A stretch of DNA of 14,205 nt from a virus. Taxonomy: Duplodnaviria > Heunggongvirae > Uroviricota > Caudoviricetes. This document shows positions 2,888 through 10,693 of the stretch, piece after piece. The translations under genes were made by a program, and so were the position numbers. The stretch lies in the IMG/VR virus record IMGVR_UViG_2541047928_000015; one strand, 5' to 3'. Each line of letters begins with the position of its first letter. The stretch's first letter is position 1. Under the pieces are notes generated by a model. It saw only the letters and a list, made by a program, of their open reading frames with translations, was not told the DNA's origin and did no database searches.

Positions 2888-3928
2888 TTATTTAGACGCA
2901 AGCGTCGCCTCAATTGCAGATAATCTTTGCCTTAATTCTGCGTTTTCTTCTTCCAGTACTGTTATTCTGTCGTCTGACTCTCTGGCTACCTGAACAAGCA
3001 AGCCAGTAACACCAGAATAATCTACTGTGTAATAACGTTCACCTTCTTCACCTTCCGATCCGCTTGCACCGTCCTGATATTTCATTGCGGAACCGACAAC
3101 TTCTGGGATTGCTTCCAGAGCTTCCTGTGCAATGACACCTGCATAGGGCATACCGTTTTCTTTAAGCGTGTATGTATAGCCGTTCATTTTACGGATGCGG
3201 TCGGTTGCATTATCGATCACCTGAATGTTGTCTTTCAGATCCCGGTCGGAATGCTGGTTAAATGCGGTGGCATGACATGCACCATTAACGCTTAACATAT
3301 AGGTGTTATCGGTATTTTTCTGCGCATAGAACATATACGCGCCACCATCAGCACCAACTTCATATACAACCGGACGGGTAGAGTTACCCCACAAACTAGT
3401 AGTAGCGCCAGAATGAGCGGTCCCCTGTGTGTTTAATGTCATGGTTGACCCATGATTGGCATATTTGATTTGTAATGTGTCTGTGCAGTCAAACTTAATA
3501 AGCGCGTTACTTCCCCGCACACCATACGACATGAGACAGTTCCCCATCTTAAGGTAACCATCACTGCCTGGAAAAATTAATGTTCCGCCGTAAAGATCGC
3601 TAAAATCCCAAAAGATACCTTTTGTTCCATTGTGTGTGACAATCCTTGTCATTGTATCTTTTGTACCGTCAATATTTTTTCTGGTGTACATCTCACTATA
3701 AGCGTTTTCGGTTTCTCCTGTCTTATTTGACAAGTGAATCTTACCGCTAAATATAGTTCCAGTGGTCGGCAATGCCTTTTGATCATAGATTACATTGCAA
3801 TAACTATTCCATGTTGTTTTATTGTCTACATATGATTTTGTTGCATAGCTTCCTTGATCAGTTTTTAGTTTACTAACATCGGATTTTAGCGTTTTGATGT
3901 CATCAGGAATTACTGTTTTTGTAACCAT
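2888..3928 (-). CDS. Tail fibre / tail spike-like protein with C-terminal intramolecular chaperone auto-processing domain (peptidase S74-like), 346 aa
   Basis: C-terminal ~120 aa (SDRDLKDNIQVIDNATDRIRKMNGYTYTLKENG ... ITVLEEENAELRQRLSAIEATLASK) has the hallmark S-D-x-x-L-K-x-N-I start and terminal coiled coil of the self-cleaving chaperone domain found in phage endosialidases and the T5 L-shaped fibre. GGAG SD 9 nt upstream of the ATG, lying inside the end of orf89. Lower GC than the J gene. Confidence 0.8.
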   Translation of the reverse strand: MVTKTVIPDDIKTLKSDVSKLKTDQGSYATKSYVDNKTTWNSYCNVIYDQKALPTTGTIFSGKIHLSNKTGETENAYSEMYTRKNIDGTKDTMTRIVTHNGTKGIFWDFSDLYGGTLIFPGSDGYLKMGNCLMSYGVRGSNALIKFDCTDTLQIKYANHGSTMTLNTQGTAHSGATTSLWGNSTRPVVYEVGADGGAYMFYAQKNTDNTYMLSVNGACHATAFNQHSDRDLKDNIQVIDNATDRIRKMNGYTYTLKENGMPYAGVIAQEALEAIPEVVGSAMKYQDGASGSEGEEGERYYTVDYSGVTGLLVQVARESDDRITVLEEENAELRQRLSAIEATLASK

Positions 3929-3940
3929 TGTCTTACTCCA

Positions 3941-4210
3941 TTAAGCCCATGTCCTTACATGCTGATCTGTCGTAATGAAAGGCATTAAAGAAGATATGTT
4001 TTTACTGCTATCAACAATCCTCATGTTTACGAAAAAACCACCGCGATCAATGCCTGTACATCTTTCGTTTTCTGGCTCCTCGTAATCGATAATGCAGCCA
4101 ATAACATCAACAAGAACCCCGTTTTCTTCTTCAAGACTGAACAGGCCACTGTCATATACAATTGCGTTAAACTGTTCTCTGTTATCGAATCGTAATGTTA
4201 TATCTCGCAT
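3941..4210 (-). CDS. Hypothetical acidic 89-aa protein, translationally coupled to the side tail fibre gene (possible fibre adaptor or assembly factor)
   Basis: ATG overlaps the stf stop (TAATG on the minus strand at 4212-4208). No family recognised. Confidence 0.6.
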   Translation of the reverse strand: MRDITLRFDNREQFNAIVYDSGLFSLEEENGVLVDVIGCIIDYEEPENERCTGIDRGGFFVNMRIVDSSKNISSLMPFITTDQHVRTWA

Positions 4211-6567
4211 TATACGTATTCCTTAAGCTGCGTATCTGACAATGCTCTGTTCCAGAAACGGAGGTTTTTTATATGACCATTAAGGTGTCGTAATCCTGTC
4301 GTCGTTTGCCCCCCGATACGAATCACGGCTGCTTCACGAATATATTTCCATACTGTTTTTGTTTCAGCGCTTATATGCTTATTTGCAAATGAGCATGTCA
4401 TGCCGTCAGCCTTAACCCTGAATCCCATAACGAGATCCCTTACTCCGCATGATTCATATACACGTCGGTTAGCCCCGCCTATATCGCAATACGAATAACC
4501 GTCCTGACTGATAGTTCCAGAAGAACCAAACCCCATAATAAATGGGCCTCCGGACTGGTGATTTTCTGAATCAATGACACGCGGTGCAGCATTATGAGAA
4601 ATAAACCAGTTTTTATGGACTTCCACCATGAACGTAAAAGGCATGGTATACATATTTTTCATCAGCGGAAATTTACATAAATCTGATGCACGAGTCGCTG
4701 GCTCTGTTGTCGTTATGATGAAGGAAGTTGCACAAGCACCATACTCGAATTGCGGGGTGGTTACTTCTATCCAGTCACCTGTTGCAAAAGCTCCCACAGC
4801 TCTGTCGGCTGCAATTTGCAGCTGCGTACCAACCATTCCCCATTCTGGCAGACATTTCAGTGTTGCCTGAAAATATATCCATCCACTACCAGGGTCGATT
4901 TCAAAGTTTGCTGTTAATAGCTGGGCATTGCCACCAGTAATTTGTAGTTCATGGGTCTGTAATGACAAATAGGCGTCGCAAAGGAAGGTGTATCCTTCCG
5001 AGTTATACCGTTCAAAACGGATACGTGCGCGAACATTGAGATCACTTCTTACCCTGAACGACGCGGTAACATACGGACCTTTACTGTACTGATCATCGCC
5101 AGTCACATCTATGCCTTTGTTACCAGCAACTGTGCATATATTTCTCCCTGTTGTCGTTCCTGCTATATCGCTTCCTACCGTGAAACGTCCATATTTAAAC
5201 TCAAATTCATCTGTTGATGATGTTACAGATATACCACCGCTTTTATTCCACGCATCAGGATTAAAACTATTTACGAACATGTTTGTTCGCTGATTCTCTA
5301 TCAGCAAACCATATTTTTCAAAACGAGGAACGTTATTACCTGCCACGGTAATATGCCCGGACTTATCAATATACGTTGCAGATGAAGCCCGGCTAAATTG
5401 GCATATGCCATTAACTGGCACAGTGATTTCATCGCTGCCGATGGTTATTGTTTTATACCCCGGCGCATACCCTGTTATCGCTTCCAGAGAATCATTCAAG
5501 GGTAGCCAGATATCAGGAAGCGGAGGGACAGAAGCAGGATCAGCGGCATCTTCTGCAATCCGGGCTGCATTCTCTGCTCTTGTTGCGGCTGACGTTGCTT
5601 CTGTCTCGCTGGCTGCTGCTTTTGTTTCGCTCGCCTTTGCGTTAGTTTCACTGGTTTTTGCAGCTTTTTGGCTATTAGCTGCCGCTGTTGCAGAACCAGC
5701 TGCAGCACTCTCGCTTTCGGCTGCTGCATCCTGACTGCTTTTCGCCGCAGTTTCGCTGGCTTTGGCATTCGTTTCGCTGGTCTTCGCTGCCGTCTGGCTG
5801 GACTTTGCGTTAGTTTCACTCGTCTTCGCAGCTTTCTGGCTGTTAGCCGCAGCAGTTGCTGATCCAGCTGCTGAAGTCGCAGAACCGGCTGCCGCGCTCT
5901 CGCTTTGGGCTGCTGCAACCTGGCTGTTTTTTGCCGCAGTTTCACTGGCTTTGGCATTCGTTTCGCTGGTCTTCGCTGCCGTCTGGCTGGACTTTGCGTT
6001 GGTTTCGCTCGTCTTTGCGGCTGTCTCGCTGTTTTTCGCGTTGGTTTCTGATTTTTTGGCTGCTGTCGCGGAGTTTGCCGATGCAGTCTGCGAGGACGCT
6101 GCCGCCTGTGCGCTGTTAGCTGCATTCGTTTCTGAGGTTTTCGCCGCGTTCTTCGATGATGCCGCTGCAGTTTCGGATTTCTTTGCCACCGCTGCGCTCT
6201 GAGAGGCGGCTTCGGCGTTGCGTGCCGCTTCTTCCACCATTGCCTCAAAACGACGCAATGCCTCCGGCATGACATCATCTTCCGTCATGGCACCGAGAAA
6301 ATCATTCAGCGTACCTGGTCTGGAACCTTCATAGACGGTAATGATCCCGGCATGTGAAGGCGGAAAACCTTCAACCAGCAGGATAACGCTATACTGGCCA
6401 TACTCAACGTCCATGCTGTAACGCCCGGCTTCATCCGGATTTTCAGAGGCCACCGTGTTCACCAGTACAGTGGTGCTGTTACGCTTTGCCTTCAGTTGAA
6501 TAGTGCAGTTCTGTATTGGTTTTCCCGCACCATCTTTCAGCACACCTGAGATTTTTACTGCTGCCAT
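4210..6567 (-). CDS. stf: Side tail fibre protein: lambda Stf-like N-terminal anchor and Ala/Ser/Thr/Lys repeat shaft, non-lambda distal region ending in a ConA/LamG-like lectin domain
   Basis: N-terminus MAAVKISGVLKDGAGKPIQNCTIQLKAKRNSTTVLVNTVASENPDEAGRYSMDVEYGQYSVIL is near-identical to lambda Stf as I recall it. C-terminus ...RIGGQTTTGLRHLNGHIKNLRFWNRALSDTQLKEY matches the LamG-type signature (G-x-I-x-x-hRhWNRALS-x-x-Q/E-h). Start placed at ATG 6567 (GGAG 5 nt upstream) rather than the track's GTG at 6573, which lies inside that SD. Confidence 0.9.
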   Translation of the reverse strand: MAAVKISGVLKDGAGKPIQNCTIQLKAKRNSTTVLVNTVASENPDEAGRYSMDVEYGQYSVILLVEGFPPSHAGIITVYEGSRPGTLNDFLGAMTEDDVMPEALRRFEAMVEEAARNAEAASQSAAVAKKSETAAASSKNAAKTSETNAANSAQAAASSQTASANSATAAKKSETNAKNSETAAKTSETNAKSSQTAAKTSETNAKASETAAKNSQVAAAQSESAAAGSATSAAGSATAAANSQKAAKTSETNAKSSQTAAKTSETNAKASETAAKSSQDAAAESESAAAGSATAAANSQKAAKTSETNAKASETKAAASETEATSAATRAENAARIAEDAADPASVPPLPDIWLPLNDSLEAITGYAPGYKTITIGSDEITVPVNGICQFSRASSATYIDKSGHITVAGNNVPRFEKYGLLIENQRTNMFVNSFNPDAWNKSGGISVTSSTDEFEFKYGRFTVGSDIAGTTTGRNICTVAGNKGIDVTGDDQYSKGPYVTASFRVRSDLNVRARIRFERYNSEGYTFLCDAYLSLQTHELQITGGNAQLLTANFEIDPGSGWIYFQATLKCLPEWGMVGTQLQIAADRAVGAFATGDWIEVTTPQFEYGACATSFIITTTEPATRASDLCKFPLMKNMYTMPFTFMVEVHKNWFISHNAAPRVIDSENHQSGGPFIMGFGSSGTISQDGYSYCDIGGANRRVYESCGVRDLVMGFRVKADGMTCSFANKHISAETKTVWKYIREAAVIRIGGQTTTGLRHLNGHIKNLRFWNRALSDTQLKEYV
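5580..6125. repeat. Imperfect tandem DNA repeats (three ~120-190-bp units on a 21-bp / 7-codon periodicity) inside the stf shaft-coding region
   Basis: Seen directly: 5747-5823 is almost identical to 5936-6011, and 5630-5750 closely resembles 5800-5936. Protein shows repeating KTSETNA/KSSQTAA/KASETAA heptads. Confidence 0.7.
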
Positions 6568-6631: not shown

Positions 6632-7231
6632 TCAGAATTTATAACCGACACCCACGATGAAACCGTCAGTGCGCCAGTCGCCACTGCCGGAGCCTTCATA
6701 AGCAATATCAATGGCCACGGATTCGGTCGGGTTAAACTGCACGCCAGCTCCCCACGCCAGAGACGTGTTGCTGTGGCGATCGTCATCACTTCCGGTCAGC
6801 ACATCGTGCGTTTTCCCCTTGTTGTCAGTTACGCGGAGATAATCCCCGGAGAACGTCGAAACACGGCTGTAAGCCACACCTGCCATCGCATAAGCACTGA
6901 ACCATTCATTCACGCGTACAGACGGCCCCGCCATCATGCTGAACCAGCGGTTACGCACTGAATCTTCATGCCAGCGGGTATCGCTGTAATGCGTTTTTTG
7001 CTCATCTTTGGCATTGGCATAACTGAATGACGTCACCAGCCCCAGCGTGTCCGTAAATTCATAACGGTATTTCACGTTAATGCCCTTCAGGTCATCGTTG
7101 CCGGGCATATCAGTATGGGTCTGAAGATACCCGGCGCTTAGTGTGGACTGATGCTCTGCTGCGCTCGCTGGCGTACCAGCGGCGACCAGCCAGACTACTG
7201 TGGACAGAATAACAGCACATAATTTACGCAT
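6632..7231 (-). CDS. lom: Lom outer membrane protein (Ail/Lom/PagC beta-barrel family), signal peptide present
   Basis: 199 aa. C-terminal IAYEGSGSGDWRTDGFIVGVGYKF and internal motifs (KGINVKYRYE, SAYAMAGVA) match lambda Lom. Same position as in lambda, between J and stf. Confidence 0.95.
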   Translation of the reverse strand: MRKLCAVILSTVVWLVAAGTPASAAEHQSTLSAGYLQTHTDMPGNDDLKGINVKYRYEFTDTLGLVTSFSYANAKDEQKTHYSDTRWHEDSVRNRWFSMMAGPSVRVNEWFSAYAMAGVAYSRVSTFSGDYLRVTDNKGKTHDVLTGSDDDRHSNTSLAWGAGVQFNPTESVAIDIAYEGSGSGDWRTDGFIVGVGYKF

Positions 7232-7297: not shown

Positions 7298-10200
7298 TCA
7301 GCTGATACTGATGCCTGCGGTGGCTTTCTTCATCACCACAACCAGCAAATCGCTGATACTTGCTGTGGGATACCAGTCATTTACCAGCCATGCTGACACC
7401 GAAAACTCCAGCGTCATGTGACCGTGACCGGCAGGCATATCAATAACGCCACTGTAAATCAGCGTATTATCCAGCGCGGTACGGTTATAAATTTCAGCAC
7501 CGTTTTTCCGCACTATCAGACGGCATGAGGAGTAAATATCAGTATGCTCTCTCTCATGTTTAGCGCCGCTGAATGCCACCGCCGGAATAACAATCTGCCG
7601 GTCAAACGGCTGATCGTCATAAACCCTGACGGTAATGGTCCCTGATGGCCACCGTTCCGGTGCACGGGAGTCCCGGGGGAAAGCTTTGCCCACTGTTTTA
7701 ACGAGATCGCCTTCAATCTGGTTCGCGGACAGTTTTCCCAGAACCCGACAGTTCTCGTTAATCGTGACGTTGTTGAGCGTCCCGGAGTTCGCATTCACGT
7801 TACCGCTGATATCGGCATTTTTCGCCGTCAGCCGCCCATCCGGTGTCAGGGAAAATGCCGGTGGATTTCCACCACTGGTAATGGTGGGGGCCGTCAGGCG
7901 TTTCAGGAACACGTCGTTCATGAATATCTGATTGCCCTGCGCCACAAACATCGGCGTTTCATTCCCGTTTGCCGGGTCAATAAACGCGATACGGTTAGCG
8001 GCAACCAGAAACTGGCTCAGTTTGCCTTCCTCCGTGTCCTCCATACTGAGGCCAATACCCGCGACATAATGTTTGCCGTCTTTGGTCTGCTCAATTTTGA
8101 CAGCCCACATGGCATTCCATTTATCGTTGGCATCCTTCCACTCTTTCGAAAACTCATCCAGTCTGCTGGCGTTATCCTCCGTCAGATCGACTTTTTCCAG
8201 CAGCTCCTTGCCGAGATGGGATTCGGTTATCTTGCCTTTGAAAAAATCCAGGTAACCTTCCGCATCATCGCTCGCCCGACCGACGGACTCCACGAATGCC
8301 GATTTGCCAACGGTGTTCACACTGCGGATATAAAAGTAATAATCATGGCCCGGTTTGATATTGATACTGGCGGCTATCCAGTACAGCCCCGTGCCAAGGT
8401 AGCGGGCTGTGGTTTCAACCTGCCTGATATCGGTAATCCGCGTTTCCGAGAACCAGAACTCAAACTGTACCGTCGGATCATAAACCGCAAGATGCGGCGT
8501 GGCGGTGATCTGAAAATAGCCCGGCGTCAGCTCAATCCTCGACGGTGCTGCCGGTGCGGCAATCCGGAACGATACCGACGCCGGATCGCCCTGCTGCCCC
8601 CACGCATTTACCGCCCGGACTGTCAGCCTGTAGTTCCCCAGCGCCAGCTGCGTGAAGCGGTATGTGGTTTCCGCCGTCCGGGCCGTGCTGACCAGCCGCT
8701 CACTGCCGTCATCCGCTGCCACGGTCAGGCGAAGCATAAAGCTCACCCCCTTCACCACCTTCGGCGTATCCCAGCGTGCCAGCACCTGATACTCCCCGCT
8801 GTCTGCGGTGACTTCGGCAGTCAGGTGCTGCACCGCTGGCGGCGTGACACCATTCACCGTGCCGCTCTGGTCGCCGTCAAAGTGCGCCCCGTTATCCACG
8901 ATGGCTTCTTTTTCCGGTACATGCTGCACGGCGGTGATGGCATACGTGCCGTCGTCGTTCTCACGGATACTCACGCAGCGGAACAGGCGCTGGCGCAGCG
9001 TCGGCAGCTTCAGCCCCCATACGCTGTATTCAGCAACGCCGTCAGGAACACGGCTCACTTTCACCTTCACGCCGTCGGTGACGGACTGGACCTCCACGCT
9101 GACCGGATTGCCACTTCCGTCAACCAGGCTTATCAGCGTGGTACCGGAGGATGGCAGCGTGATTTCACGGTCGAGCGTCAGCGTCCGGGTCTGGCTGTTC
9201 ACAGCCAGCACGCGCCCGCCGATGCTGATCCCCGCATAGTCATCATCGCAGATTTCAATAACATCCCCCGGCACATGGCGAAGCCCTTCGGCACCCACGC
9301 TGAAATCCACGGTCTGCGTCTCCAGCAGCTCCGTTTTAATCAGCCACAGCCCGGCGCGGTGTGCCTGCCCCCGACTGGTACAGCCAAAGGCATCCATCTT
9401 CGTGACGTTACGACCGTAACGGGCAATGGCCTGCGTGTCCTCCACAAGCTCTGTCGCCGTCTCCCAGCCGTTATCCGGGTCAATCCAGTTCACCTCAACG
9501 GCATTATGACGGTCCTTCAGGGCGCTGAAGCTGTAGCGGAACGGCGCGCCATCATCCGGCATCACCACATTACTGCGGTTATAGGTCCACACCTTATCCG
9601 ATGGCCGGTCCTGCACGAACGTCAGCGTCTGCCCGTTCCATACCGGCATACAGCGCATCGCCGAGCAGAAATCACTGAGCACATCCCACGCCTTGCGCTG
9701 TGTGGTCAGGTACGCATTACAGGCGATGCGCGGCTCCGTGCCGCCAAAGCCGTCCGGCACCGACTGGTCGCAGTACTGGCCGATGACATACAGCGCCCAT
9801 TTATCCACATCCGCCGCACCAAGACGTTTCCCCATGCCGTAGCGCGGATGGGTCAGCATATCCCACAGACACCAGGCCATGTTGTTGCTGTATGCCGGTT
9901 TTAACGTTCCGTCCCAGATACCGCTGTATTGTCGCGTCTGCGGGTTATAGTTCGACGGCACCTGCAGAATGCGCCCGCGAAGATGATAATTACGACTCAC
10001 CTGCTGACTGCCGAACTGCTCCGAGTCCACCTGTACGCCAACCAGTGCCGTGTTCGGGTAGCACTGTTTCACATCGATGATTTCGGTGTATGACGACCAG
10101 AGCGTTTTGTTCTGCAGCTGGTCTGTGGTGCTGTCCGGCGTCATCCTGCGCATCCGGATATTAAACGGGCGCGGCGGCAGGTTATCCACCACCACCGAGG

Positions 10201-10693
10201 CCAGATACTGCGAGGTGGTTTTGCCCTTAATGGTGATGTCTTTTTCCGTCACCCAGCCACCGTTACGCTGTATCTGAACCAGCAGGCGGACTTCCGACGG
10301 ATTCCTGTCACCCTTTGAGGTGGTTTCCACCAGTGCCTGCACGCCGAAAGTAAAGCGCAGACGGTCGATGTTTGCCGACGTGATGGTGCGGGTGATCGGC
10401 ATGTCATATTTCACTTCCATACCCAGCACCGTCTCGGAGCCGGAGGATTCAAACCCCTCCGGCGGAGTCTGCTCCTGCTCACCTGCCCGGAACACCGCCG
10501 TAACACCGGAAATGTTGGTATTCCCTTCACTGTCCAGCACCGGCGTACTGTTCAGCAGCACGCTTTTTAACCCATCCACCGGACCTTCAATCGGCCCTTC
10601 GCTGATGACATCGATCACACTCAGCAACTGCGTGGATTTCAGGTTGTCCTTCGCTTCGCGCGGGGTATGCCCCTTACTGCTGCCTTTACCCAT
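7298..10693 (-). CDS. J: Tail tip host specificity protein J (central tail fibre), 1131 aa
   Basis: Length and sequence along the whole protein resemble lambda J, including the C-terminal end ...[32 protein letters not shown]. Confidence 0.97.

Follow-up and report, generated by a model that had tools for sequence, protein, structure and literature searches.

In lambda-like phages, workhorses of DNA delivery to gut E. coli, host recognition begins with a reversible step that is set by the side tail fibres. A stretch of 14,205 nucleotides (nt) from a temperate lambdoid prophage (IMG/VR record IMGVR_UViG_2541047928_000015, Caudoviricetes; referred to here as the window) raises a question about how such a fibre ends: what is the place of a small, separate, fibre-like protein encoded downstream of the side tail fibre gene, stf? 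An earlier note on this DNA had read the protein, orf346, as carrying a self-cleaving intramolecular chaperone domain, and had suggested that it forms a second distal tip or branch docking on Stf. Our analysis backs this suggestion with the gene order in other phages, a conserved N-terminal peptide and homology to the modelled fibre of phage IrisVonRoten. We consider it likely, with a probability of roughly 0.7, that orf346 is docked on Stf as the distal, third member of a cassette for the side (lateral) tail fibre, Stf-orf89-orf346.

The chaperone domain of orf346 and its predicted self-cleavage

The open reading frame (ORF) of orf346 lies on the minus strand, which the earlier note had left unsaid, and a GGAG Shine-Dalgarno sequence stands 8 nt ahead of its ATG. 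In the hidden Markov model search that the note had proposed, Pfam Peptidase_S74 (PF13884; here S74) matched residues 227-278 at E 6.2e-14 and 52.5 bits, against a family cut-off of 22 bits, and the match covers profile positions 1-57 of 58. The signature motif reads S227-D-R-D-L-K232-D-N-I (Ser227 codon TCC, 3250-3248; Lys232 codon AAA, 3235-3233), and the S227-K232 pair is kept in at least 90% of a 34-sequence family alignment. Judged by the profile match and these residues, the C-terminal ~120 amino acids (aa) form a genuine S74 intramolecular-chaperone domain that includes the catalytic Ser/Lys pair, as had been proposed. A profile of the 34-sequence alignment also matched the chaperone region of Salmonella phage S16 gp37 (6f45; E 1e-7) and, weakly, MYRF. 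When orf346 alone was compared with PDB sequences by phmmer, the S16 gp37 chaperone was the sole match (E 0.0016).

The position of the cut can be predicted from T5 pb1, in which Lys1269 activates the nucleophile Ser1264, the chain is severed between Thr1263 and Ser1264, and a Ser1264Ala mutant remains uncleaved (PMC4690869). The spacing of serine and lysine (+5) is the same in orf346. Since the pb1 cut falls just before the serine, we place the predicted orf346 cut between His226 and Ser227, that is, before the SDRDLK serine to which the earlier note had pointed. The predicted products are a mature part of 226 aa (24.8 kDa) and a released fragment of 120 aa (13.2 kDa). The terminal coiled coil that was also proposed is plausible: an AlphaFold2 (AF2) model has a helix at residues 304-345, in a block with a predicted local distance difference test (pLDDT) score of 79-88, within a model that is poor as a whole.

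The part of orf346 ahead of the predicted cut is fibre-like. With the family profile, the ~55 residues preceding the cut match the C-terminal trimer module of T4 gp34 (E 7e-9), and tblastn finds the mature part to resemble P2 gpH and other fibres. In PHROGs, phrog_4563 'tail fiber protein' aligns over the full length of orf346. No tail-fibre-assembly (Tfa) family matched orf346 in Pfam, PHROGs or NCBIfam, in line with the previous view that this is not a conventional Tfa chaperone. Furthermore, the ratio of nonsynonymous to synonymous substitution rates (dN/dS) against three homologues is 0.07-0.27, which shows that orf346 is under purifying selection.

Stf, orf89 and orf346 as a three-gene cassette

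The earlier description of orf346 as a small separate protein downstream of Stf stands, with a mature part of 226 rather than ~228 aa, but the two genes are not directly adjacent, since an 89-aa gene between them, orf89, had been overlooked. The stf stop overlaps the orf89 start (TAATG), orf89 is predicted to be translationally coupled to Stf, and orf346 starts 12 nt past the orf89 stop. Terminator-like hairpins follow J and lom, and none was found between stf and orf346. Because of this tight packing and the lack of a terminator, we read the three genes as one operon.

Stf is 787 aa long when counted from a GTG start (785 aa in the RefSeq call). Its N-terminus is a lambda-type attachment domain (phage_tail_N, E 6e-66; PDB 9e7m, the lambda Stf N-terminus, E 8e-49), followed by an Ala/Ser-rich, repetitive shaft and a C-terminal domain of ~440 aa (residues 345-787, 4210-5541). 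The Pfam search found no S74 domain in Stf. Residues 424-629 match GTA_spike_fiber (NF048003, E 2e-12; PDB 6tb9, E 3e-7), the family of the Rhodobacter gene-transfer-agent (GTA) head-spike-fibre, and Stf is predicted to end in a lectin-like module of its own. Because the C-terminal region holds this GTA head-spike-fibre domain, Stf probably binds a surface glycan by itself.

For orf89, Pfam and NCBIfam gave no match and PHROGs gave phrog_1361 only; a fold search with a low-confidence model was uninformative. A single-sequence search for homologues returned only four fragments, and a family-alignment profile was used instead. In the scan of viral contigs for orf89 relatives many loci were cut at prophage ends, and 17 of 23 were informative. 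The family carries the conserved motifs GYFVNVRIL and PLREWA, and in every lineage looked at its members (~85-93 aa) stand between a large fibre gene and a third gene. They occur beside the Stf C-domain in lambdoid, Queuovirinae, Dhillonvirus, Drexlerviridae, T5-like and rV5-like phages. In addition, phage 21, the rV5-like phage JeffSchatz and a large group of prophages keep orf89 although they have no third gene. Given this retention, orf89 probably serves the Stf C-domain first of all, either in assembly or as a cap, and it may also be part of a docking socket.

The order of a large fibre gene with an Stf-type C-domain, a gene for a protein of ~85-93 aa and a further fibre gene recurs well beyond the window. 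It is found in the plaque-forming lambdoid phages PhiR11_1 and Tritos, in the virulent Nonagvirus JenP1 (gp23-gp24-gp25) and a second Queuovirinae contig, in Seuratvirus KurtStettler, Dhillonvirus KarlBarth and Drexlerviridae swan01, and in the T5-like phages VSe12 and IrisVonRoten and a 111-kb T5-like contig (L005). This synteny holds in at least six phage lineages with otherwise unrelated tails, and pairwise comparison bears out the homology of all three proteins. The first protein has a phage_tail_N N-terminus in the lambdoid and Queuovirinae cassettes; in the T5-likes it has a T5 pb1-type N-terminus and comes after LtfC. What stays constant is the C-domain of the first protein, orf89 and the start of the third protein.

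Conservation between distant phages is uneven across the cassette. JenP1 gp25 (L004, 6914-7969) is 82% identical to orf346 in protein and 79% in DNA, whereas gp23 is 40% identical to Stf and gp24 29% identical to orf89. These identities indicate that a virulent and a temperate phage have recently exchanged a single gene of the cassette, the one that would encode the tip. Among 5426 complete E. coli genomes the orf346 gene family is present in 652 (~12%), in 249 of them with at least 80% coverage, and it is always annotated 'tail fiber domain-containing protein'. The exact combination of the stf 3' end, orf89, orf346 and the membrane-protein gene that follows them occurs in ~98 genomes.

A shared N-terminal peptide and a series of proposed tips

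The products of the third genes begin with the consensus M[VAT]T[KSVY]TxIPxDIxxLK, and their bodies otherwise differ; the start of orf346, MVTKTVIPDDIKTLK, fits this consensus. When a degenerate DNA pattern for the peptide was run on IMG/VR, at least 119 loci were found. Among the matches listed, a gene of the orf89 family lies just upstream of the peptide in 119 of 119, no locus has the peptide without it, and the Stf C-domain is found upstream in 118, the exception having 63 nt of upstream sequence.

Behind this constant start, the third genes form an allelic series. Products with an S74 domain measure 346 aa in the window, 224-234 aa in other E. coli prophages and swan01 (S74 at 116-172 in the 234-aa form), 326 aa in a T5-like contig, 510 aa in KurtStettler and 557-586 aa in T5-likes, where they are of the T-shaped type. 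In viral contig L031 the product is a 330-aa protein with Gp34_trimer and Gp53-like_C and no S74, and in KarlBarth it is a pair of 98 and 196 aa with Phage_tail_C_2.

Variation within the orf346 family itself was profiled as mean pairwise column identity by region over 32 unique sequences. Residues 1-35 and the S74 domain (227-346) both score 0.94, residues 111-226 score 0.87 and residues 36-110 have the lowest value of the four, 0.67. Residues 171-220 are moderately variable in the family alignment, and in the Tritos homologue the region of residues 36-110 has been swapped wholesale. To judge from this alignment, the constant anchor, variable middle and constant chaperone of orf346 are the usual signature of a receptor-binding protein. 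The AF2 model, built as a monomer from the 34-sequence alignment and used for secondary structure only, has a beta-rich unit at residues 51-100 (pLDDT 73-81).

Several individual alleles deserve mention. In other strains the 234-aa allele sits at the same chromosomal site, prfC-dinI-pinR (L017, 5292-5996; also L016 and L041-L159), with the same N-terminal peptide and a mature part of 115 residues ahead of its S74 domain, and this short form occurs in about half of the scanned prophage loci among the matches listed. In KurtStettler gp24 (L011, 4501-6033), annotated 'putative lateral tail fiber chaperone', the S74 domain lies at 208-259 and is followed by ~250 more residues; a non-terminal chaperone is unusual for the family. 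In VSe12 (L009, 5075-5200), MVTKTVIPTDITKLK is coded in an unannotated spacer ahead of the 'tail fiber protein' gp088, and the S74 end has a gene annotation of its own (gp089, 80 aa). Since the peptide lies in a spacer and the S74 end in a separate gene, the VSe12 third gene is either frameshifted or mis-annotated.

Relation to known fibres

The nearest described system is that of IrisVonRoten (Bas32, Tequintavirus), for which AlphaFold-Multimer models have been published (10.1101/2024.09.12.612763). In these models Gp24, bearing the intramolecular chaperone, is attached to Gp22, the proximal fibre; a galectin-like domain juts out from the C-terminus of Gp22 and was put forward as a further receptor-binding domain (RBD). 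The window has the same three features: a proximal fibre with the C-domain, a ~90-aa gene in between and a third protein starting with the peptide. Stf is 45% identical to Gp22 over ~740 aa, the C-domain included, and orf89 is 33% identical to Gp23. Similarity of orf346 to Gp24 amounts to 71% in the N-terminal 17 aa and 25% in the distal tip and S74 domain; the alignment covers orf346 residues 1-17 and 29-336 (Gp24 264-571), and the RBD1 region has no counterpart. Gp24 differs in being a T-shaped protein of 574 aa with an extra Gp12-like receptor-binding domain, an insert of ~230 aa that orf346 lacks. By this alignment, orf346 falls outside the T-shaped dual-RBD class, which combines a Gp12-like RBD1 with a T5-like RBD2. 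The proximal fibres also differ at the N-terminus, which is of the T5 pb1 type in IrisVonRoten and the lambda Stf attachment domain in the window, and the setting of the window is a temperate lambdoid prophage.

T5 pb1 itself (PDB 4UW7/4UW8) shares with orf346 a C-terminal S74 domain, the Ser/Lys spacing and a cut (in orf346, predicted) just before the serine, and its binding tip is unmasked once the chaperone is released (PMC4690869). In orf346 the S74 domain is likewise C-terminal, with a long end helix in an AF2 model that is poor overall, and comes after the gp34 trimer-type module. The two differ in that one pb1 chain of 1396 aa holds both attachment and tip, which are here split over separate genes. 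Neither phmmer against PDB sequences nor Foldseek gave a significant direct match of orf346 to T5 pb1.

A second S74-bearing fibre protein on a first fibre is also known from the branched lateral tail fibres of phages DT57C and DT571/2, compared here by description only. According to the part of the report drawn on here, the S74-bearing LtfB needs LtfA as its attachment site, and genetic evidence supports the presence of two specificities on a single fibre (PMC4728585). The system differs in that LtfA itself ends in S74 and that the docking segment of LtfB (N-terminal ~45 aa) is phiEco32 gp15-like, and that same part of the report makes no mention of a ~90-aa gene between the fibre genes (PMC4728585). 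A search of the literature returned nothing relevant on virion proteomics of JenP1-like phages or on lambdoid Stf with S74 partners.

The Stf of Ur-lambda needs a separate Tfa chaperone and has a different C-terminus. The window shares with it the N-terminal Stf attachment domain and the place after J and lom; it differs in that tfa is reduced to a remnant of 36 codons, replaced by the lectin-like C-domain, orf89 and the S74 tip protein. Finally, K1F endosialidase is the founder of Peptidase_S74, with the domain on a tailspike enzyme; orf346 has the same Pfam family and SDxxxK motif, but on a fibre fragment of 226 aa.

A model of the side fibre and its alternatives

In the model that we favour, orf346 would be synthesised as a 38-kDa precursor, whose S74 domain would trimerise and act as the template on which the gp34-like beta-fibre ahead of it folds. 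With Lys232 as its activator, Ser227 would then sever the chain between His226 and Ser227 and free the 13.2-kDa fragment. The mature 226-residue trimer would be held on distal Stf by its N-terminal peptide and a short coiled coil (residues 1-30), either directly or via the 89-aa protein. Such a side fibre would have two binding modules, the lectin-like C-terminal domain of Stf and an exchangeable orf346 tip, with residues 36-110 and 171-226 as the variable parts of the latter that could contact receptors. We place the docking site on distal Stf because the cassette moves among unrelated tail tips and only the Stf C-domain and orf89 are invariant.

Several points weigh against this model. Phage 21 and many prophages have Stf and orf89 with no third gene, so Stf works without one and orf89 does not serve a third gene exclusively. 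Between distant phages, the orf346 family is better conserved than Stf or orf89, as the JenP1 identity of 82% illustrates; this is unusual for a host-range determinant, though it fits recent transfer. The 119 loci are mostly related E. coli prophages and not independent of one another, and the scan pattern was derived from the third-gene family itself. Furthermore, the AF2 model has a mean pLDDT of 60, with the S74 region below 50, and Foldseek against PDB gave nothing at E<=0.001, only weak matches to T4 gp34; a poor result is expected, because a monomer was modelled where the fibre would be an intertwined trimer. Attachment, cleavage and presence in the virion are properties that, for orf346 and its close homologues, we infer.

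A variant of the favoured model would make orf89 the true adaptor on Stf, with no contact between Stf and orf346. Its attraction lies in the position of orf89, immediately upstream in 119 of 119 loci among the matches listed and by prediction coupled to Stf in translation; moreover, IrisVonRoten Gp23 carries the annotation 'tail fiber protein' and is named in one place of the BASEL text as the proximal partner. However, retention of orf89 without a third gene in phage 21 and JeffSchatz suggests a role with the Stf C-domain, and the fold of orf89 gives no clue. We regard attachment through orf89 alone as unlikely.

To much the same degree, we find it improbable that orf346 is an independent short fibre, a trimer bound to J or another protein of the tail tip or baseplate and not to Stf or orf89. 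As a complete small fibre with its own start codon and ribosome-binding site it could be one, and many phages, according to the BASEL paper, have long and short fibres that are independent. However, lambdoid, Queuovirinae, Dhillonvirus, Drexlerviridae and T5-like phages all have one and the same peptide despite their differing tail tips; no neighbours other than the Stf C-domain and orf89 are constant, and the peptide occurs without them in none of the 119 matches listed.

A third possibility is that orf346 is an assembly chaperone acting in trans, which would use its S74 domain to help fold or trimerise a Tfa-less Stf and then be discarded without entering the virion. This would suit a window with no intact tfa, only a C-terminal remnant, and an Stf with no S74 domain of its own, and the annotation of the KurtStettler homologue in BASEL implies it. 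However, to our knowledge all characterised S74 domains work in cis, that of K1F endosialidase among them. In T5 pb1 the domain acts on the very polypeptide that it leaves (PMC4690869). The 226-aa mature part is fibre-like, with the variation pattern of a receptor-binding protein, and third genes that share the peptide but carry Gp53-like_C or Phage_tail_C_2 tips have no S74 domain to lend. Because phage 21 is functional with Stf and orf89 alone, the folding of Stf needs no third gene, and we judge a chaperone in trans very unlikely.

Finally, it is scarcely credible that orf346 is decaying or irrelevant cargo, or an alternative Stf C-terminal exon swapped by a PinR-like invertase, for although the window is a prophage and a recombinase gene (1735-2325) and a tfa remnant adjoin the cassette, the ORF is intact, on the stf strand with its own ribosome-binding site, under purifying selection and present in plaque-forming phages.

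Implications

The S74 domain, its self-cleavage chemistry, multi-protein lateral fibres and a modelled homologous cassette were already known, and no new mechanism is involved; the arrangement is less unusual than the rating in the earlier note implied. The present analysis adds that such a cassette extends to lambdoid Stf, that it has a putative docking peptide specific to it and that its tips form an allelic series. On the model of a tip docked on Stf, one common class of lambdoid Stf would be built from three proteins and would carry a tip that matures by itself and can be exchanged, with the same docking peptide as in virulent T1-, T5- and 9g-like phages. A shared docking peptide would account for the movement of tips among phages that are otherwise unrelated (against JenP1, 82% identity for the tip and 29-40% for its neighbours). 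Furthermore, vague or misleading annotations can be corrected: 'tail fiber domain-containing protein', 'putative lateral tail fiber chaperone' and 'hypothetical protein'.

A broader proposal can be put forward only tentatively, and we hold it to be somewhat doubtful. The 15-residue peptide, orf89 and the end of the Stf C-domain might form a universal plug-and-socket in at least six siphovirus lineages, temperate and virulent, allowing tips (S74, Gp53-like, Phage_tail_C_2 or T-shaped) to be swapped as single genes. In that case orf89 would be a previously unrecognised adaptor, and lambdoid prophages in ~12% of E. coli genomes would encode side fibres of dual specificity. If true, lambda-based delivery particles could be retargeted by grafting at a point that already exists.

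Gene neighbourhood

The features of the window and the regions of orf346 are collected in Table 1.

Table 1. Features of the window around orf346, with the regions of the orf346 product
Feature	Coordinates	Strand	Basis
J	7298-10693	minus	gene order, profile search
lom	6632-7231	minus	gene order, profile search
Stf, proximal side tail fibre, 787 aa	4210-6573	minus	phage_tail_N
orf89, small conserved partner (phrog_1361), probable assembly factor or possible cassette adaptor	3941-4210	minus	synteny across lineages
orf346, likely third (distal) side-fibre subunit precursor, 346 aa, 38.0 kDa	2888-3928	minus	complete ORF, ATG to TAA
orf346 residues 1-35: conserved N-terminal peptide MVTKTVIPDDIKTLK and predicted helix 9-28, putative docking segment	3824-3928	minus	identity 0.94, AF2 helix
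orf346 residues 36-110: most variable mosaic segment, candidate receptor-binding or lateral domain	3599-3823	minus	identity 0.67
orf346 residues 111-226: fibre shaft and tip, to predicted cleavage site His226	3251-3598	minus	gp34 trimer match, P2 gpH similarity
orf346 residues 227-346 and stop: S74 chaperone, helix 304-345, predicted 13.2 kDa release	2888-3250	minus	Pfam, family profile
Small two-helix membrane protein (phrog_1443; 97 aa in RefSeq)	2553-2876	minus	PHROGs match, synteny
tfa C-terminal remnant, 36 codons	2423-2533	minus	only tfa sequence in window
PinR-like serine recombinase	1735-2325	plus	profile search
Truncated host gene, MalX phosphotransferase-system (PTS) maltose transporter, N-terminal 139 residues	1-462	plus	NF007509, E 2.5e-80

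The phrog_1443 membrane gene ends the cassette also in Tritos, phage 21 and loci L015-L017, L037 and L038; in phage 21 it comes directly after orf92. It is possibly a lysogenic conversion or exclusion gene linked to the receptor of the fibre. Beyond it, the recombinase and the tfa remnant look like what is left of an earlier stf-tfa-pin arrangement that the present cassette has overwritten, and Tritos has the same recombinase/tfa-remnant neighbour as the window. An invertible segment was considered here and rejected, the best flanking inverted repeats being 71-79% complementary and orf346 co-directional with stf.

At the left end of the window, the MalX fragment is followed by out-of-frame sequence, as a host gene truncated at a prophage edge; a locus with identical fibre genes (L001) has another left flank, with ydfK, dinI and prfC. 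Within stf, several long ORFs (109-260 aa) overlap the gene on both strands at 5405-6278. They fall on the 42-bp and 189-bp tandem repeats coding for the Ala/Ser-rich shaft, and they are almost certainly artefacts of its repetitive composition.

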